A DNA stretch of 5,913 nucleotides from a virus (taxonomy: Duplodnaviria; Heunggongvirae; Uroviricota; Caudoviricetes). The notes beneath the pieces were generated by a model. That model was not told where the DNA came from, made no database searches, and saw only the letters and a list, made by a program, of their open reading frames with translations. How positions within the stretch are numbered: the first letter of the stretch is position 1; every line of letters begins with the position of its first letter. Positions 56 to 5,913 of this stretch are shown here, in pieces. The position numbers and the translations under genes were made by a program. Location: positions 1 to 5,913 of IMG/VR virus record IMGVR_UViG_2667527959_000008. The stretch is one strand, 5' to 3'.

Positions 56-1432
56 TCATACGTCAGCCCCTTGTGCATATCGTCTGCCACGCGCAGCAGG
101 TGCATTTGATGCTGTGCAAATCTGTCTGGCTTCATCCTGGTCACATGCCACAAAGTGTCCGTTGCAGAACCGCTGGTAAACCGTACCAAGCGAGCCAAAA
201 CGGTTTTTCGTCACGATGATTTCAGCAAATGGTGCGGCGCTACTGTTCTCGTCATATACCGCTTCCCGATAGAGCATGATGATTGAGTCTGCGTCCTGCT
301 CAATGCTTCCTGAATCACGCAAATCTGCGTTTGTCGGGCGTTTGTTTGGTCGCTTCTCAACATCGCGCGAAAGCTGACTCAGGGAGATAACCGGTGTTTT
401 CAGGTCTTTCGCCATCGCCTTCAGGCTTCCGGAGATGTGAGCAATTGCGAGGTCGTTGCGGTCTGCTTTCGGCTTCTCAATCAGGCCAAGATAATCCGCC
501 ATGATGAGTGACAGGTTTGGATTTTCCTGTTTGTGCCGTTCTGCGATTGAGCGTATTTCTTCGACCGATAACCGCGATGCATCGACTACCCATACATCCA
601 AATCCGCAAGCTGATTCATGCCGTTAGCAACGCGTGCCCAGCCCTCGTCATCCATTGATGCAGGATTTCGCAGTACGCTAACCGACATCCTCCCGGCGTT
701 GGCAATGCTTCGCTCTGCAATCTGCAATGCGCTCATTTCCATTGAGAAAATCAATACTCCGCGCCGGACGTCAGAACCAGGAATAACGCGGCTTGCAACG
801 CCTTCGGCAATCTTCAGCGCCAGTTCGGTTTTCCCCATACCAGGACGAGCAGCGATTATCACCAGGTCTTCCGCGTTCATCCCTCCGGTGATGGCATCAA
901 GTTCTTCGATTCCGGTCTTCAGGGTATCTGACTCTTCTCCGTTCCTCAGACGCCTGTCAAGCGTGTCAGTGTAGTTGGTGATGATTTCCCCTAACCGTAC
1001 CGGTTTAACCTCGTCACGGGGCTTTCTGATGGCTGAAAGACGCTTTACAAGTTCATCCATCGCCTGACTCGATGCGTCGATGGTTCCGCTCTGAATTGGT
1101 TCACGCATTTCATCCATGATTTCCAGCACCAGACGGCGGTGATAGTTATCCGCGACCATTCCGGCATATCCCTTCAGGTTTGCGGCGCTCGGGCAGTTTT
1201 TGCTGGTCATCAGGATTGACGTGAAATGCTCCTCTCCGCACGCCTCGGCAACCATCAGCGCGTCGATTAGGTTTCTGTTTCTCGCCTGCTTGCGGATAAC
1301 CTCGAAGGCTTTCCGGTAGAGCGGAATTGAAAACGCTTCCGGCTCCAGTGTTGCCAGAACGTCACTGGCGGTTGGTGTTAATCCACCAATCAGCAGGCCA
1401 CCGATAACGCTCGCTTCGATATCCTGTTTCAT
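56..1432 (-). CDS. DnaB-family replicative DNA helicase (phage-encoded, P22 gene 12-like)
   Basis: 458-aa ORF with a DnaB-like N-terminal domain and a RecA-type ATPase core including Walker A (AARPGMGKT). Putative SD GGGGGA about 5 nt upstream of the ATG. The start ATG overlaps the stop of the upstream O-like gene (ATGA at 1429-1432), implying translational coupling. Confidence 0.9.
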
Positions 1433-2376
1433 GCAATCCCCCTGTCTGCAAACTTCCCTTCCCGAACTCCCGTTAACGAATCTTCCCTCAGCAGGTAATC
1501 AAAATCGGCCGTCCAGCCAGTGTCGTTGTCTCCGAAGTAAAACGGCTTGGCCTGATGTACAAACGCCCTGACATACGCTCTGAAACCGTCCACGTTTGGC
1601 GTTTTCAGTTGCGGGATGATTTTCTTCAGGCGGCGTTTGCGTTTCTCGTTGACCGCAACAGCGTGTGGCAGTCTGTCACCGACTTCGGTGTTGTAGGCGT
1701 TCAGGAAGGATTCGTAGTCGATTCGTTCTGCCTTGCGACGTTCATGTTTAACCTGCCCATCGCCTCCCCCATTGGGGGGTAGGGGGGTATTATTTATATT
1801 CTTGTTAATACCTTCTTGTTCATGATGTGCGGTTGTTTGTGCGGCTTCATGTGCGCTTTCATGTGCGGTATGTACGCTGAAAGCCGCGCCATTGCTGGCT
1901 TCATCATGTGCGGCATCATGTGCGGTTGTTTGTGCGGCTTCATGTGCGGGTGAATCGTCCATTTTTTGAGCATATTCATGGTAATTTGTGATGGTTATCA
2001 CGCGACCTTTTTGCTTCTCTCCATCAATGGAGATCATCCCCTCTTTCACAAAAACCTGAAGCATCCGCTCAACCTGATCACGGCTTGCTGGCTTGCCATG
2101 TCTGTCGCATAACTGAAGACCTAAATCAGCTGCTGTCACAACCAGTTGACCGGGTTGCAGATGCCATTCATGACCTTTGAAATTCGCTTTGTATGGCTTT
2201 CTGGCGGCATTCAGGAGAAGGTTTTCCCACAGGGTGCGAAGATAAACATCTTTCGCCCATGACTGTTTCAGAATGCTCCGGTACAACGGAATGTAGCCAG
2301 TTTTCTGGTTCTCCATCCTGTTGCTCCTGCGCTCGTGTGCGGCGCTGAAATCGTAGATTTTTGCTGTATTGCTCAT
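1429..2376 (-). CDS. Replication initiation protein, lambda O-like architecture (N-terminal DNA-binding domain, repeat-encoded linker, conserved phage C-terminal domain)
   Basis: 315-aa ORF starting MSNTAKI (lambda O starts MTNTAKI). The central part is encoded by the iteron array (repeated HEAAQTTAH peptide motif). It sits immediately upstream of, and coupled to, the helicase gene, in the position of lambda O / P22 gene 18. Confidence 0.8.
1789..1812. other. AT-rich segment flanking the iterons (candidate DNA-unwinding element of ori)
   Basis: TATTATTTATATTCTTGTTAATACC lies directly downstream (in gene orientation) of the iterons, the same order as iterons then AT-rich region in lambda ori. 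It is preceded by C5 (1766-1770) and two G6 runs (1774-1779, 1783-1788). Confidence 0.55.
1823..1949. repeat. Iteron array (putative ori) inside the O-like gene
   Basis: About 8 copies of TGTGCGG (one TGTGCGC) at 11-13 bp spacing in two clusters. A 31-bp block ATGTGCGGTTGTTTGTGCGGCTTCATGTGCG is repeated exactly, starting at 1824 and at 1918. Confidence 0.7.
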
Positions 2377-2378
2377 AA

Positions 2379-2651
2379 CTACCTGCCTTGACGAAAGACC
2401 TTAAGAACATCGTTAAACTGACTTACGGATATGTCTTCTTTGAGCAGCTTTTCCAGAAATGCGTTTGGAATGAACGTATATCCCTCCTCTTTTGGTAGAG
2501 ACGGGAGCAACGCCCTCGCCTCAGCCTTCAGAAGCTCAGTTCTGGCAACTTTCACAAAAGAGATTTGAGTTCTTTCATCAATGGAACGAAGGAAGCGCAA
2601 ACGCTTAGCTTCTTTGTGTGTATCAGGTGGATTAAAGCCTTTGTTTCGCAT
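2379..2651 (-). CDS. Hypothetical protein (90 aa) between cII and the O-like gene
   Basis: Start chosen at the internal ATG (2649-2651), preceded by GAGGT about 7 nt upstream and lying after the cII stop. The longer 146-aa reading from 2819 would overlap cII out of frame. The stop TAG (2379-2381) is 2 nt from the O-like ATG, suggesting coupling. No family recognised. Confidence 0.5.
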   Translation of the reverse strand: MRNKGFNPPDTHKEAKRLRFLRSIDERTQISFVKVARTELLKAEARALLPSLPKEEGYTFIPNAFLEKLLKEDISVSQFNDVLKVFRQGR

Positions 2652-2656
2652 ATAAT
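2651..2656 (+). promoter_or_regulatory. Candidate -10 element (TATAAT) of an OOP-like antisense promoter
   Basis: Perfect TATAAT on the plus strand just downstream of cII (in cII orientation), about 45 nt before a plus-strand intrinsic terminator. No convincing -35 (TGGATT at 2628-2633 is the best). Confidence 0.4.
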
Positions 2657-2662
2657 TACCTC

Positions 2663-2730
2663 GTTGGATGTTGTTAAAATTCCATTTGTATTTGATCAGA
2701 ACGCTCGGTCTTGCACACCGGGCGTTTTTT
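2663..2730 (+). ncRNA. Putative OOP-like antisense RNA overlapping the 3' end of cII
   Basis: Predicted transcript of about 68 nt from the TATAAT at 2651-2656 to the terminator at 2701-2730, antisense to the last ~55 nt of cII (stop at 2674-2676). This matches the known arrangement of lambda OOP RNA (77 nt, ending within cII). Confidence 0.45.
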
Positions 2731-2973
2731 ATTGGTGATTTCATCAAGCGCATACTTAAAAGCCCTGCTAATCGGACTGATGTCTGATGCCATTCCGAAA
2801 GCACACAAGACCGAAGCAATAAACCTCCAGTCCGTTCTGCTTATCTTCGATTCATGACAGCCAATCATCTTTGCCAGACCGCGCTGGGTAAGCGTTGACA
2901 GGTTGATGAGTAAATCAGTTTCAGCGCGATCAATTTCTCGCTGTGTTGGCTTGCTGTAACTTGCTTGTGTCAT
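2674..2973 (-). CDS. cII: Transcriptional activator CII
   Basis: 99-aa ORF whose C-terminus (ITNKKRPVCKTERSDQIQMEF) closely matches lambda CII (ILTNKKRPAATERSEQIQMEF). Contains an HTH region; SD GGAGA about 8 nt upstream of the ATG; located directly downstream of cro. Confidence 0.9.
   Translation of the reverse strand: MTQASYSKPTQREIDRAETDLLINLSTLTQRGLAKMIGCHESKISRTDWRFIASVLCAFGMASDISPISRAFKYALDEITNKKRPVCKTERSDQIQMEF
2701..2730 (+). terminator. Plus-strand intrinsic terminator inside the cII 3' coding region (putative OOP terminator)
   Basis: Stem 2702-2708 CGCTCGG pairs with 2718-2724 CCGGGCG (6 Watson-Crick pairs plus one G-U), 9-nt loop, followed by T6 (2725-2730). Confidence 0.55.
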
Positions 2974-2983
2974 TTCTTACTAT
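2951..2983 (+). promoter_or_regulatory. PRE-like CII-dependent promoter (TTGC-N6-TTGC activator site plus -10)
   Basis: TTGC (2951-2954), N6 TGTAAC, TTGC (2961-2964), then 13 nt, then TACTAT (2978-2983). Lambda PRE has TTGC-N6-TTGC, 13 nt, AAGTAT. It lies antisense within the first codons of cII and points toward cro/cI, as in lambda. Confidence 0.7.
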
Positions 2984-3094
2984 CTCCATAGATAAATAAT
3001 TTGGGTTTTTATCGTGCACCATTGACAGTCATCCTTGACCACGCCGGGCACCCGACCGTATACCGGGCCGTTCGGTACTAAAAGTACATTTTTA

Positions 3095-3325
3095 TTACAT
3101 AACAAACTGCTGTTTACCGATACGGCGAATCTGTGCTGCTGAGTACTTGCCGCCTGATGCCTTGGCGATCTTATCCGCATATTCGGTTTCACCAGTGAAC
3201 TCGGTACGCGGCAGAGAACCACGCTCAAGCCACTTATAGATGGCTTTTGGCGTAAGTCCACAAACATCAGCCACAACAGAAACTCGAACGGATTTGATAA
3301 CTTCTCCAAACGTAACTTCGTTCAT
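3095..3325 (-). CDS. cro: Cro-like HTH repressor
   Basis: 76-aa ORF with a helix-turn-helix segment (VADVCGLTPKAIYKWLERG). Strong SD AGGAGA 5 nt upstream of the ATG; divergent from cI across an operator region; followed by cII. Confidence 0.75.
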   Translation of the reverse strand: MNEVTFGEVIKSVRVSVVADVCGLTPKAIYKWLERGSLPRTEFTGETEYADKIAKASGGKYSAAQIRRIGKQQFVM

Positions 3326-3340
3326 GCTTCTCTCCTGTGG

Positions 3341-3355
3341 TGAACTTATGGTTCA
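3341..3355. promoter_or_regulatory. Operator OR (cro-proximal copy), palindrome TGAAC-N5-GTTCA
   Basis: TGAACTTATGGTTCA, identical to the 15-mer at 3398-3412. It sits just downstream of the predicted PR -10, over the PR start region. Confidence 0.7.
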
Positions 3356-3356
3356 T

Positions 3357-3384
3357 ATTATGACGGAACTGATAGTACAGTCAA
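3357..3384 (-). promoter_or_regulatory. PR-like promoter driving cro
   Basis: On the minus strand: -35 TTGACT (plus 3379-3384), 16-nt spacer, -10 CATAAT (plus 3357-3362), about 25-30 nt upstream of the cro ATG. Confidence 0.6.
3364..3378. promoter_or_regulatory. Possible degenerate middle operator
   Basis: GGAACTGATAGTACA partially matches the TGAAC-N5-GTTCA pattern (GGAAC ... GTACA) and lies within the PR spacer. Weak. Confidence 0.25.
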
Positions 3385-3397
3385 TACCTAATATAGT
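3369..3397 (+). promoter_or_regulatory. PRM-like promoter for cI (candidate, possibly leaderless)
   Basis: -10 TATAGT (3392-3397) sits 7 nt before the ATG at 3405; the -35 is weak (CTGATA, 3369-3374). A weak, activator-dependent promoter would be expected by analogy to lambda PRM, whose mRNA is leaderless. Confidence 0.35.
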
Positions 3398-3412
3398 TGA
3401 ACTTATGGTTCA
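3398..3412. promoter_or_regulatory. Operator OR (cI-proximal copy), palindrome TGAAC-N5-GTTCA
   Basis: TGAACTTATGGTTCA, identical to 3341-3355. It contains the ATG (3405-3407) proposed as the cI start. Confidence 0.7.
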
Positions 3413-4112
3413 ACAGAAAGAGCGTGAAACTTTCTCGCAGAGGCTTGCGCTGGCCTGTGATAAAGCGGGATTACCTTTGCATGGTAGGCAGGCTGATTTA
3501 GCTGTCAGGCTTAAGGTCACACCAAAAGCCATTAGTAAATGGTTCAACGGGGAGTCAATACCAAGAAAAGACAAGATGGAATCTCTGGCTTCGGTGCTGG
3601 GAACTACTGCTGCATATCTGCATGGCTATGCTGATTATGACGGTATCACGGTAAATCATCTATCAAGATCAAATGATTCTTATCGTGTTGATGTATTGGA
3701 TGTTCAGGCGAGCGCCGGGCCAGGAACCATGGTTTCCAATGAATTTATAGAAAAGATAAGAGCAATTGAATATACGCCCGAGCAGGCAAGAATTTTATTT
3801 AATGGAAGGCCACAGGAAAGCGTAAAAGTCATCACGGTTCGCGGTGACAGCATGGAGGGAACCATCAATCCGGGAGATGAGATCTTTGTTGATGTATCCA
3901 TAACCTATTTTGATGGAGATGGCATTTATGTGTTTGTATACGGGAAAACAATGCACGTTAAGCGCCTGCAAATGCAAAAGAACAGGCTTGCCGTCATCTC
4001 TGACAATGCCGCTTATGATCGATGGTACATAGAAGAAGGTGAAGAAGAGCAACTTCACATTCTAGCCAAAGTCCTCATTAGGCAGTCAATCGATTACAAG
4101 CGATTCGGATAA
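3405..4112 (+). CDS. cI: CI-type prophage repressor (N-terminal HTH, C-terminal S24/LexA-like autopeptidase domain)
   Basis: HTH segment (QADLAVRLKVTPKAISKWFNG), Ala-Gly cleavage site (QASAGPG), catalytic Ser in RGDSMEG and Lys in HVKRL. The ORF is open from 3240, but that part overlaps cro; in-frame ATGs at 3348, 3360 and 3405 are all possible, and 3405 is chosen because it follows the operators and promoter. Confidence 0.85.
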   Translation: MVQQKERETFSQRLALACDKAGLPLHGRQADLAVRLKVTPKAISKWFNGESIPRKDKMESLASVLGTTAAYLHGYADYDGITVNHLSRSNDSYRVDVLDVQASAGPGTMVSNEFIEKIRAIEYTPEQARILFNGRPQESVKVITVRGDSMEGTINPGDEIFVDVSITYFDGDGIYVFVYGKTMHVKRLQMQKNRLAVISDNAAYDRWYIEEGEEEQLHILAKVLIRQSIDYKRFG

Positions 4113-4119
4113 AAATAAA

Positions 4120-4216
4120 TTTCCTTAAAGTTCACTAACTTATGATGTAGTGAGCTTTTTATACCCATAAAATGTACTATTGGTACTTTACATTAATGAA
4201 CTTTAAGTACATTATA
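4120..4216 (+). promoter_or_regulatory. Candidate OL/PL region (operator-like half-sites and an early-left promoter candidate)
   Basis: Operator-like 15-mers: 4197-4211 TGAACTTTAAGTACA (11/15 to the OR 15-mer) and 4120-4134 TTTCCTTAAAGTTCA (10/15). An inverted repeat TCACTA/TAGTGA (4132-4137 / 4148-4153) contains AACTTATG, shared with the OR core. Promoter candidate: -35 TTTACA (4187-4192) with a -10 in ATTATAAGT (4211-4219). The position just after cI corresponds to lambda OL/PL. Confidence 0.4.
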
Positions 4217-4388
4217 AGTCCATCGAAACAACACAGCGTTTCGGTCAGTCGAACGGCGCGACAGTAAACCATGCGTCGGACCATAGGCGGGCTCAGGAAG
4301 AGCGGCAATTATGGCAAAGCGATTTACCAGCAGCTCTTTGCGAGGGGCTGACGGCAAATCTACTCCACTTATTTAAAAGAGACGGTAT

Positions 4389-4562
4389 ATGGATAATCAG
4401 GATAATGAGTTAAGAAAGGTTGTTCAGGAACTTGCTGATGAAGAAGGCATCAGCTTTTCCGATGCCCTAGATGTTTCGATTAAAGCGCTGCGTTATGAGG
4501 TAGAGCGCAGAAAATCGTTTAACGGTGAAGCTGCTTGTGATGGCTCTGCAATTACTTCTTAG
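4389..4562 (+). CDS. Small acidic hypothetical protein (57 aa)
   Basis: ORF MDNQDNELRKVVQELADEEGISFSDALDVSIKALRYEVERRKSFNGEAACDGSAITS, absent from the supplied track (presumably below its length cut-off). Weak SD (AAGAGA 8-13 nt upstream). About 13 acidic versus 7 basic residues. Its 3' end overlaps the convergent minus-strand gene by 11 nt. Confidence 0.35.
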   Translation: MDNQDNELRKVVQELADEEGISFSDALDVSIKALRYEVERRKSFNGEAACDGSAITS

Positions 4563-4830
4563 CCAAGTACCAAGAGGTGTCTGCGGCTTCGGAAACCAGT
4601 ACGTAATAGCTTTGCTTTACACTACTAGCTATACCTCTGACTTCCTCTCTAACGTTATATGCAGTTGATGTTTTTACGGTTGTATATTCAGCTGTTGGGA
4701 GGTTAAACCAAGTGCCATTACCATCCTGTATCTCACGCGAATAACCCTTTGCTTTCATCTTTTCATGAAGATTTTCATAGTCTTCAGAATCAGCGCCGCG
4801 CAACTCAACTCGAACAATATATCTTGCCAT
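4552..4830 (-). CDS. Hypothetical protein (92 aa), own promoter, transcribed opposite to the early-left genes
   Basis: Start chosen at the ATG at 4828-4830 (MARYIVRVELRGADSEDYENLHEK...), preceded by AGGA about 9 nt upstream. The 139-aa reading from 4971 would cover the promoter, repeats and terminator hairpin. Predicted alternating beta/alpha small protein. It faintly recalls a prophage-associated DUF family, but I cannot name it with confidence. Confidence 0.6.
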   Translation of the reverse strand: MARYIVRVELRGADSEDYENLHEKMKAKGYSREIQDGNGTWFNLPTAEYTTVKTSTAYNVREEVRGIASSVKQSYYVLVSEAADTSWYLAKK

Positions 4831-4845
4831 AAGAAGATTCCTATA

Positions 4846-4890
4846 TTGACTGTGGAATGAGCAACATATCAGTTTCCTTTGACTGTGGAA
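4846..4890. repeat. Two perfect 12-bp direct repeats TTGACTGTGGAA (4846-4857 and 4879-4890)
   Basis: Exact 12-mer repeated at 33-bp spacing. One copy lies in the spacer of the candidate promoter and one in the leader of the 92-aa gene. Confidence 0.7.
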
Positions 4891-4895
4891 AGCAA
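4866..4895 (-). promoter_or_regulatory. Candidate sigma70 promoter for the 92-aa minus-strand gene
   Basis: On the minus strand: -35 TTGCTT (plus 4890-4895), 18-nt spacer, -10 TGATAT (plus 4866-4871), about 30-nt leader to the ATG at 4830. Confidence 0.4.
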
Positions 4896-4944
4896 AGGGA
4901 CACGGGCCGGGCGTGGATAAAAATCCCGGCACCAACCATCGCAA

Positions 4945-4968
4945 AGCCGCCACCTGAGCGGCTTTTTT
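4945..4968 (+). terminator. Plus-strand rho-independent terminator
   Basis: Stem AGCCGC (4945-4950) / GCGGCT (4958-4963), 7-nt loop CACCTGA, followed by T6 (4963-4968). Oriented to stop plus-strand transcription that has run antisense across the 92-aa gene. Confidence 0.65.
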
Positions 4969-5101
4969 CATACCTAAGAAACTTCGCAGAGGTTTCTAAG
5001 TTATGAGACGGCGGCCATCCACCGCCCATTGAAACACTGAATAAATGCGTTGAAGTCTTGTATTAACCGTTCCGTTCGCCGCGATAAGGCCAAGAGGATT
5101 T

Positions 5102-5311
5102 ATGAGTGATTTGGAGTTGGGCTTAAAGATATACGCATTATGGTTTGTCGGGACGTTTCTGCTCGGCATAGCAATCAACTCGCTGACGAAAAAAGAACAT
5201 CGCCAGCCAATTTCAAAACTAGCCATTGACCATGTACGCATGTCTTCCGCAATAACCATTGTGGGCCTGATTGTGTGCGGTATGGTCTGGTTCTTATTCA
5301 AGGTGGTGTGA
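5102..5311 (+). CDS. Small membrane protein (69 aa, two predicted TM helices)
   Basis: Strong SD AAGAGGA 4-5 nt upstream of the ATG. Hydrophobic segments IYALWFVGTFLLGIAI and AITIVGLIVCGMVWFLF. Stop TGA (5309-5311) is 1 nt before the next ATG (5313). Confidence 0.6.
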   Translation: MSDLELGLKIYALWFVGTFLLGIAINSLTKKEHRQPISKLAIDHVRMSSAITIVGLIVCGMVWFLFKVV

Positions 5312-5312
5312 G

Positions 5313-5471
5313 ATGACAGTCACCCACAACGGCAAGCAGTACACCGACAAAAAGCTCAACGATAACGAGTGGCAGCTGACGTCGGTATCGGCACCGCGCG
5401 ACAAGCTGACGCTGAACCGCCAACAGATGAATATCGCTGGCCTCCTGGAACAGGTTGAGGTGAAGGTATGA
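5313..5471 (+). CDS. Hypothetical small protein (52 aa)
   Basis: ATG at 5313 preceded by AAGGTGG. Stop TGA (5469-5471) overlaps the next ATG (5468-5470) as ATGA. Sits in the position occupied by cIII (before kil) in lambda, but no sequence resemblance recognised. Confidence 0.5.
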   Translation: MTVTHNGKQYTDKKLNDNEWQLTSVSAPRDKLTLNRQQMNIAGLLEQVEVKV

Positions 5472-5608
5472 TCAATCATCACCTGCTGCGCGCCGCGCAG
5501 AGCAAAGCAGCCATTGCCCTGTTTATCGGTGATGGCGCCATGTGGATGGCAGCCTACGACGAAATGAAGGTTGCCATCGGTTATCCGTGGCATAGAAAAA
5601 CAGCCTAA
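5468..5608 (+). CDS. Small protein (46 aa), possibly Kil-like host division inhibitor
   Basis: ORF MINHHLLRAAQSKAAIALFIGDGAMWMAAYDEMKVAIGYPWHRKTA. Size and position in the early-left operon fit lambda kil (47 codons), and the A-x-Q-x-K ... FIGD motif resembles my recollection of Kil. Homology is unverified. Confidence 0.45.
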   Translation: MINHHLLRAAQSKAAIALFIGDGAMWMAAYDEMKVAIGYPWHRKTA

Positions 5609-5678
5609 TTCCCCTATTCAACCGATCGGCCTGGCTAAAAGCGGGCGGGATCTGCACATCCAAATTTCAGGAGAAACC

Positions 5679-5913
5679 ATGAGCGAAGTAATGGACTTAA
5701 CTGTCATCGAAATCACGCCGGAGCAGGCGCCAGCGCTTTACGTAGCGGGCGGCCTTGACGCTTACCTCGAGCAAATCCGCCAGGCAGTAAACGAAGTGCC
5801 GGACCTGTCAACGAAGAAAGGCCGTGACCGTGTCGCCTCTCTGGCGGCGCAGGTGTCGCGCAGAGAAACAGGCTCAATGGAAAGCAGCAAATCCCCTGTT
5901 GGTTGGGGTAAGC
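5679..5913 (+). CDS. Hypothetical protein, 5' part only (runs off the window end)
   Basis: Strong SD AGGAGA 5 nt upstream of the ATG at 5679; open to the end of the window (78+ codons: MSEVMDLTVIEITPEQAPALYVAGGLDAYLEQIRQ...). In lambda the genes after kil are gam/bet/exo, but no resemblance to lambda Gam or Bet was recognised. Confidence 0.55.
   Translation, partial: MSEVMDLTVIEITPEQAPALYVAGGLDAYLEQIRQAVNEVPDLSTKKGRDRVASLAAQVSRRETGSMESSKSPVGWGK

Follow-up and report, generated by a model that had tools for sequence, protein, structure and literature searches.

Morons, as reportedly defined for HK97 and HK022 by Hendrix and colleagues, are extra genes that lie between conserved phage genes and carry a promoter of their own. 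Phages of the HK022 type lack N and rely on put RNA, with nun occupying the position of N (PMC9378689). The defining trait of the type V toxin–antitoxin system is that GhoS, a sequence-specific endoribonuclease, cleaves the mRNA of an adjacent membrane toxin (PMC4344625), and in e14 of Escherichia coli K-12 the genes ymfI and ymfJ are listed as a convergent excludon detected by RNA-seq (PMC12288877), ymfJ being induced late in the SOS response (PMC11002266). Here we analyze a convergent pair of small genes in a stretch of 5,913 nt from the Caudoviricetes record IMGVR_UViG_2667527959_000008 (the whole stretch is called the window, and coordinates refer to it). An acidic 57-aa gene, read in the sense of the early-left promoter PL, meets a 92-aa gene on the opposite strand. 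With moderate confidence, we read the 92-aa gene as an antisense moron with a portable leader in the early-left operon of an HK022-like, put-dependent prophage. The pair itself is of an ordinary prophage accessory kind, and what merits follow-up is the leader that it shares with other units, pseudoknot included. The two genes are:

4389–4562, plus strand: 57-aa acidic protein, first PL-sense gene after putL (open reading frame, homologues, dN/dS).
4552–4830, minus strand: 92-aa GhoS/Cas2-fold protein, DUF2622-like and YmfI-related, the putative moron cargo (Pfam, NCBIfam, AlphaFold2, Foldseek).

The convergent layout with an 11-nt overlap of the stop regions, reported in a preliminary description of this DNA, stands, as does its placement next to OL/PL, which has 97% identity to HK022 OL/PL and a TTTACA-17-CATTAT promoter. 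The mechanical open reading frame (ORF) on the minus strand extends to 4971; the conserved 92-aa product starts at the ATG at 4830, with an AGGA Shine–Dalgarno (SD) sequence 8 nt upstream. Its homologues are 91–92 aa long in 19 of the 20 aligned (94 aa in one), and all 20 begin with MA/MP..(V)RVE. For this ORF the searches returned 26 close clusters and, at E ≤ 1e-3, 2,043 representative clusters, in a family that spans many phyla. The preliminary description had allowed that the 57-aa ORF might be non-coding, which is countered by 39 homologue clusters of 57–65 aa (one of 81 aa) and a low pairwise ratio of nonsynonymous to synonymous divergence (dN/dS 0.03–0.26 over the first 44 codons, with synonymous sites near saturation). 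Judged by these comparisons, both ORFs are conserved coding genes. The convergent layout recurs at 17 independent loci in nine genera (Enterobacter, E. coli, Pantoea, Pseudescherichia, Rahnella, Lelliottia, Tatumella, Citrobacter and Klebsiella); where the overlap was measured, at seven of these loci, it is 11, 15 or 21 nt. In E. coli the pair is rare, with more than 70% of the queried region matched in only 3 of 5,426 complete genomes. Signs of decay are seen at two loci: a 1-nt frameshift near the start of the 57-aa gene in Lelliottia (L017) and a GhoS-like gene broken into two frames in Tatumella (L042).

Upstream of the 92-aa gene lies a leader of ~105 nt (4831–4936) whose sequence is kept more strictly than that of the protein over a range that extends from E. 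coli to Proteus, Photorhabdus and Xenorhabdus. On the gene strand its order is pseudoknot, box A, TAnnnT hexamer, box B, SD and ATG, and in the window it comprises:

4837–4858, minus strand: weak inverted repeat that contains box B and whose 3′ arm is the SD (AGGAAT).
4846–4857, minus strand: box B, TTCCACAGTCAA, an exact repeat conserved across Enterobacterales leaders.
4863–4891, minus strand: predicted moron promoter, with a −35-like TTTCCA (4886–4891), a 17-bp spacer and a −10 hexamer TATGTT (4863–4868).
4879–4890, minus strand: box A, TTCCACAGTCAA, which directly repeats box B and shares bases with the −35 hexamer and the spacer.
4901–4930, no strand assigned: covarying H-type pseudoknot, stem 1 GCCGGG/CCCGGC, with the loop CACG pairing with a downstream CGTG.

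The −10 hexamer is TG-extended (TG at 4870–4871), and box B falls at about +1 of the predicted transcript. Viral leaders were collected from IMG/VR by an exact match of both boxes, a search that partly builds in the invariance of the boxes and of the −35 hexamer; TAnnnT and the spacing were not selected for, and of 90 distinct leaders all have TAnnnT, 87 have the 17-bp spacer and 57 have a TGn before the hexamer. We read TTTCCA-N17-TAnnnT as a sigma70 promoter signature with its −35 in box A and its start at box B. The 92-aa gene appears, as had been suggested, to be a self-contained unit that is directed against PL and brings an SD and a conserved sigma70-like promoter of its own, and this predicted promoter is of the kind that the moron definition names.

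The two-box leader is found in at least 119 IMG/VR contigs (loci L080–L198), and only about one third of these carry GhoS-like cargo. Behind the others stand at least 11 unrelated families of small ORFs of 54–136 aa (at least 12 families when the GhoS-like one is counted), one of which is the ECs_2282 Zn-ribbon protein and the rest of which have no family assignment. In phage HK225 the leader precedes a 136-aa gene that lies antisense between Q/tR′ and the holin gene, and e14 ymfI has a one-box form. With so many unrelated cargo families behind the same leader, we rejected the idea that the GhoS-like protein autoregulates the leader boxes. A leader peptide was likewise set aside, as the 8-codon upstream ORF of the window (MLLIPQSI) is not conserved in other leaders. 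The boxes are treated here as DNA or sequence elements.

The pseudoknot is kept with the leader. Both stem 1 (at least 5 Watson–Crick pairs) and the pseudoknot stem (at least 4) can be formed in 81 of the 90 distinct leaders, against 1.4% of shuffled sequences. Stem 1 is 5–8 bp long, and the loop segment pairs just 3′ of it. Pairing is maintained through at least six variants of stem 1 (among them GCCGGG:CCCGGC, GCTGGG:CCCAGC, GCCTG:CAGGC and ACCGGG:CCCGGT) and at least eight of the second stem (among them CCACG:CGTGG, CCATG:CATGG, TCACG:CGTGA, CGCG:CGCG, CCCAC:GTGGG, AACCCGC:GCGGGTT and CGGG:CCCG). These interleaved covarying helices point to an RNA. Rfam 15 has no family that matches the leader or the pseudoknot. 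In most leaders an operon-sense intrinsic terminator (an A-run followed by a GC hairpin) lies 15–20 nt from the pseudoknot. We also considered a conserved promoter ahead of the pseudoknot, on the cargo strand, and rejected it, as no fixed TAnnnT occurs there and the operon-sense terminator takes that place. A match to the small RNA isrK (4892–4968, plus strand) was rejected too: it scores 21.3 bits where the cut-off is 50 (E 0.23), fails to recur at six further loci with the leader and probably arose by chance; it spans the complement of the pseudoknot and the PL-sense terminator, and isrK itself sits downstream of a Q gene in Gifsy-1.

The pseudoknot segment is also seen without the two boxes, in the P2/186-like Salmonella phage SopEPhi (L200, locus 1501–1532, between CII-like and Fil-like genes) and in phages S9-5 and ENT1 (P22-like and Enterobacter phages), which suggests that it is a separable module. 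Tentatively, and as a possibility that we hold at rather less than even confidence, we propose that the ~105-nt element is an undescribed portable expression platform for accessory genes of Enterobacterales prophages, that leader and partner gene serve as homologous flanks for cargo exchange, and that the pseudoknot is a new cis-acting RNA that controls or insulates antisense units.

Cargo varies at the window's own position. In related E. coli prophages, putL (to window 4358) and the terminator region (from ~4947) are retained, and what lies between these flanks is an antisense ECs_2282 Zn-ribbon gene, BRO-N with a small gene, or TerB with DUF3927, so that the slot does hold variable cargo, as the preliminary description had supposed it might. 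Among leader–cargo units in general, 64 cases were scored by crude ORF calls for the strand of the flanking ORFs of at least 70 aa: in 35 both flanks run opposite to the unit, and in one both share its strand. A 61-aa cargo overlaps its 79-aa convergent partner by 4 nt, a 69-aa cargo overlaps a 62-aa partner by 14 nt, and GhoS-like cargo overlaps the 57-aa partner, the 79-aa partner or others; in Serratia the GhoS-like gene is found between Q and the lysis genes and converges on a 67-aa gene of an unrelated family, and in Halomonas it lies in the early-left operon, convergent with a 131-aa gene. On this comparison, leader–cargo units in general overlap a small gene of the sense strand tail to tail. 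Homology among the partner families (57 aa, 67–79 aa and YmfJ) was sought and none was detected. We favor an arrangement in which a conserved leader and a conserved partner gene flank exchangeable cargo.

The partner in the window is conserved over its N-terminal 45 residues and variable in its C-terminal tail. Its AlphaFold2 (AF2) model, with a predicted local distance difference test (pLDDT) score of 82, is a two-helix hairpin (residues 2–19 and 23–48) followed by a tail that is predicted to be disordered, and the coding region of this tail overlaps the 92-aa gene. No relatives were found in Pfam, NCBIfam, PADLOC or the PDB, and no structural match was significant; a ribbon–helix–helix identity was rejected, the Foldseek matches being non-significant (E > 0.7).

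Cas2-fold toxins with small partner proteins exist (VapD/VapX), and the pair could be read as a dedicated two-protein module in which the 92-aa protein is a lysogen-made RNase-type effector or toxin acting in exclusion or abortive infection and the 57-aa protein, the first to be made from PL, is an antidote that spares the phage's own lytic growth. The 57-aa gene is indeed the first ORF after putL and has a GhoS-like neighbor in every locus where it was found, and the weak, non-significant structural neighbors of its model are the ribbon–helix–helix antitoxins TacA, AtaR and VapB. Against this, the 79-aa partner family pairs both with GhoS-like and with unrelated 61-aa cargos, and other GhoS-like clades have unrelated partners or none. 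Over the same locus pairs, moreover, the proportion of nonsynonymous differences (pN) is 0.07–0.13 for the 57-aa gene and 0.35–0.49 for its GhoS-like neighbor, the opposite of what co-evolving pairs show. Interchangeable partners and unequal pN therefore argue against a co-evolving toxin–antitoxin pair. A type II system is expected to be a co-directional operon with a cognate, specific partner, whereas these genes are convergent, which prevents co-regulation, and their partners are unrelated or shared. The PADLOC defense models matched neither the 92-aa nor the 57-aa protein, and the structural matches stay at E > 0.7. A dedicated exclusion or toxin–antitoxin module, which the preliminary description had put forward, is on these grounds unlikely.

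Two side observations concern the sequence of the partner. In a Pantoea stewartii prophage (L003, 4618–4764) another small ORF, on the other side of the GhoS-like gene, has a motif that resembles one in the 57-aa protein (EVAEQEGITFEEA compared with ELADEEGISFSDA), and in one viral locus the partner (ENEGVSRQEAIKLV) resembles the same motif. The proteins bearing EVAEQEGITFEEA, ELADEEGISFSDA and ENEGVSRQEAIKLV may belong to a wider family of small helical phage proteins.

The 92-aa protein narrowly passes the Pfam GhoS model (PF11080; 22.7 bits against a cut-off of 21) and matches NCBIfam YmfI_phage (NF051477) over the full model length with 59.6 bits, below the cut-off of 140, so that by its scores it is a relative of YmfI and not an equivalog. 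An identical E. coli protein is named ‘type V ... antitoxin GhoS’ by the Prokaryotic Genome Annotation Pipeline (PGAP). The AF2 model (pLDDT 95) has the element order beta-alpha-beta-beta-beta-alpha-beta, and its top PDB match in Foldseek is GhoS 2LLZ (E 1.1e-4, template modeling scores 0.69/0.64), followed by Cas2 proteins; identity to GhoS is ~14%. When profiles were compared with hhalign, the family matched YmfI of e14 (K-12) at 89% probability (E 2e-6), while the match to E. coli GhoS was weak, at 5.8%. Eight residues (R7, E9, Y18, H22, P45, E48, Y49 and W87) are 89–100% conserved in 124 family representatives, and in the hhalign alignment GhoS carries different residues at these invariant positions.

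The name given by PGAP, a Pfam score above the gathering threshold and GhoS as the best structural match would all suit a type V antitoxin acting in trans, that is, a GhoS homologue that cleaves the mRNA of a membrane toxin made elsewhere (a host GhoT or OrtT, the 69-aa protein at 5102–5311 or Kil at 5468–5608) and so guards the lysogen from leaky PL transcription; toxic small genes (Kil and the hydrophobic 69-aa protein) do follow in the PL operon. A tblastn search for GhoT across ~75 loci found no adjoining homologue in any of them, the sole hit (in L052) lying ~3.7 kb away on the opposite strand. A nearby GhoT-like toxin was accordingly rejected; Pfam GhoT has no match in the window, the 69-aa protein included, and what follows downstream of the 92-aa gene is not a co-transcribed membrane toxin but the convergent gene of an acidic, soluble protein. 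The weak profile match to GhoS and its different residues at the invariant positions also speak against action in trans, as does the variation of the downstream genes between loci with the same cassette, and GhoS fails to neutralize even the GhoT paralogue OrtT (PMC4344625). We consider a type V antitoxin in trans improbable.

The PGAP label is thus unsupported, because there is no GhoT partner and the invariant residues are not shared with GhoS. As judged from its sequence comparisons and model, the 92-aa protein has the GhoS fold and is not, by the tests applied, a GhoS antitoxin in the type V sense; it belongs to a large family of stand-alone proteins with an invariant site of their own. 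Our leading guess, held with low confidence, is that it binds or cuts RNA, given its fold and an invariant site that includes Arg, His, Tyr and Glu. No clear homology to a characterized housekeeping phage function was found for it; such homology would, according to the preliminary description, have undone its proposal. The model had no significant or characterized match in a viral structure library, and none of the papers searched gave a function for phage GhoS-like proteins or e14 YmfI or mentioned the box sequence. A prophage of Serratia liquefaciens (L006) has a second 92-aa ORF (6439–6717, plus strand) on the same strand as its GhoS-like gene and 1.2 kb from it; tblastn with the window's 92-aa protein gave no hit to this ORF.

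The surroundings of the pair are those of a put-dependent phage. The elements concerned are:

3405–4112, plus strand: cI repressor of the HK022 immunity type (Pfam HTH_3 and Peptidase_S24).
4113–4226, plus strand: OL/PL region, 97.4% identical to the annotated HK022 OL/PL.
4254–4360, plus strand: putL-like antiterminator RNA of the HK639 type (alignment with HK639).
4945–4968, plus strand: PL-sense intrinsic terminator that closes the cargo slot (AGCCGC-N7-GCGGCT followed by T6; −11.9 kcal/mol fold).

As cI is on the plus strand, PL fires rightwards in window coordinates; a promoter scan placed its hexamers (TTTACA-17-CATTAT) at 4187–4215. The segment from cI through cro and putR to cII (2940–3420) is 99.6% identical to HK022 and to phage O276, where putR is annotated as an antiterminator RNA, and 4240–4358 is 97.5% identical to HK639 under a feature annotated ‘putL-like antiterminator RNA’. 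By these identities the regulatory region 2940–4360 is a mosaic of HK022 immunity and OL/PL with an HK639-type putL; in the window a segment of ~46 nt is missing upstream of the annotated put region. Put elements thus lie downstream of both PL and PR. No N-like ORF or domain was found in the window by the ORF list, Pfam and further domain searches, the absence of N being due to the phage's dependence on put RNA, and nun of HK022 is absent from the window as well. By its position the pair occupies the slot where HK022 has nun. The preliminary description had placed the pair where N normally lies, in its stead; the HK022 putR and HK639-type putL make N unneeded, and prophages of Klebsiella and Enterobacter hormaechei carry the same pair downstream of a genuine N. 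That the 57-aa protein, by itself or together with the 92-aa one, replaces N or Nun as an early-left transcription elongation factor is scarcely credible, since position alone favors it (first gene after PL/putL, as N in lambda and nun in HK022), while the protein is acidic and not arginine-rich, lacks any match to the N and Nun families, is encoded after a genuine N in other prophages and would be superfluous beside intact putL-like and putR elements.

Under the reading we prefer, that of an antisense moron with a portable leader, cI would repress PL in the lysogen and the moron promoter (4863–4891, minus strand) would transcribe the 92-aa gene alone. On induction, put-modified polymerase from PL would ignore terminators and continue from the 57-aa gene through the antisense cargo and its leader and past the terminator at 4945–4968; the convergent units would collide and form complementary RNA, and the moron would be switched off in an excludon-like manner. 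Because the ORFs overlap by 11 nt, the transcripts of the two genes must overlap, and the antisense PL transcription through the 92-aa gene that had been predicted is forced by that overlap. The extent of complementarity would depend on where the 92-aa mRNA ends, and one element is of interest here:

4444–4468, minus strand: 10-bp stem-loop inside the 57-aa ORF (−14.1 kcal/mol fold).

The codons that form it (GAA GAA GGC ATC AG. ... GAT GCC) are fixed at synonymous positions in 11 of 14 distinct 57-aa genes, and the arms GGC ATC ... GAT GCC are unchanged in 12 of the 14, with variation in the adjacent codons. We regard this stem-loop as the best candidate for a terminator or 3′ stabilizer of the 92-aa mRNA. 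If it ends that mRNA, the two mRNAs would share ~120 nt of complementarity.

Several observations weigh against the moron reading or against its parts. The 57-aa gene always has a GhoS-like neighbor (27 of 27 loci), which the moron model does not require and which hints at a functional tie between the two genes. The U-tract of the candidate terminator (UUCUUCAUC) is weak. With respect to the leader, the counts of G-U against A-C pairs (48:16) favor the cargo strand and rest on doubtful outer pairs, and the strand and role of the pseudoknot are ambiguous; RNAalifold finds stem 1 only and not the pseudoknot stem. RNA hairpins at the boxes were tried and rejected, their folds being weak (−2.8 and −3.2 kcal/mol, box B at −3.2) and not recovered by RNAalifold. 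The box and −35 invariance built into the two-box search and the crude ORF calls behind the flank count belong to the same side. Finally, the start site, terminator and lysogen expression of the 92-aa gene, together with promoter use, interference and biochemical activity, are what we infer from the sequence.

We read the window as covering the immunity genes and the early-left operon of a lambdoid prophage of mosaic make-up. Its remaining genes, from the ORF list and domain searches, are:

56–1432, minus strand: DnaB-type helicase (ORF list and domain searches).
1429–2376, minus strand: O-like replication gene (ORF list and domain searches).
2379–2654, minus strand: 91-aa gene (ORF list).
2674–2973, minus strand: cII.
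3095–3325, minus strand: cro.
5102–5311, plus strand: 69-aa hydrophobic protein, probably with two transmembrane segments (PHROG 25975).
Within 5102–5608, plus strand: 52-aa protein (PHROG 6396).
5468–5608, plus strand: Kil homologue (Pfam Lambda_Kil).

The last three are the downstream PL genes (5102–5608, plus strand). Preceding them, 4942–5101 is 87% identical to a region of phi80 that is annotated ‘terminator’ after N. The 69-aa and 52-aa genes recur after the cassette in L071/L072 and in the Enterobacter bugandensis locus L010, and not in other loci; L010 matches the window only at 4323–5478 (98.3%) and 5643–5863 (94.6%). Within the O-like gene, repeated CATGTGCGG-type motifs and a near-duplicate stretch of ~35 nt (~1816–1850 and ~1916–1953) were noted by eye at 1800–1960; they encode a His/Ala-rich repeat (HEAAQTTAH). 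These repeats look like origin iterons inside a replication initiator gene, as in lambda O.

These results have consequences for annotation and for the study of prophage cargo. Automatic annotation is corrected in that such proteins are named ‘GhoS antitoxin’ in genomes without a GhoT partner, and the N/nun-proximal slot of put-type lambdoid phages emerges as a cargo hot spot. Many small ORFan genes that are unrelated to one another, most of them lying antisense to phage operons, would be driven by one shared promoter and leader with a covarying pseudoknot. If the leader platform is confirmed, lysogen expression and induction silencing of prophage accessory genes become testable, and a catalog of lysogen-expressed small proteins could be screened for defense or host-modulating activity.

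The described systems with which we began can now be compared with the window in turn. GhoS (E. coli YjdK, of type V GhoST) is, like the 92-aa protein, a small stand-alone protein with a Cas2-like ferredoxin fold and is its best PDB match; the 92-aa protein differs in having no adjacent, co-transcribed ghoT, in its own invariant residues and in its ~14% identity, and its gene, unlike GhoST, lies in a prophage, antisense to an operon and behind a portable leader. The put phages HK022 and HK639 resemble the window in that cargo follows putL directly, as nun does in HK022 (PMC9378689); here nun is absent and the cargo is a two-gene convergent unit with one gene antisense to PL. In e14 the layout is ymfK (cI-like), then ymfJ convergent with ymfI, with a 63-nt overlap. 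It shares with the window detectable YmfI homology, a related one-box leader with the same pseudoknot, convergent overlap with a gene on the PL side and a position near a cI-like repressor, and it differs in YmfJ (102 aa), which is not homologous to the 57-aa protein, in the length of the overlap and in a C-terminal extension of YmfI; both e14 proteins are uncharacterized. As in excludons, the overlapping ORFs force overlapping transcripts, and one partner is under a strong, repressor-controlled promoter, PL; unlike in excludons, one side would be transcribed by terminator-resistant polymerase, and the window pair is known from sequence alone, transcripts being recorded for its e14 analogue. 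The unit of the 92-aa gene resembles the lambdoid morons in being an extra gene with a predicted promoter and a candidate terminator of its own, present or absent among relatives, and departs from them in that its expression signals are one portable cassette, including a covarying pseudoknot, shared by at least 12 unrelated cargo families, and in that the leader units lie mostly antisense, with tails that overlap the tail of a small gene on the sense strand.

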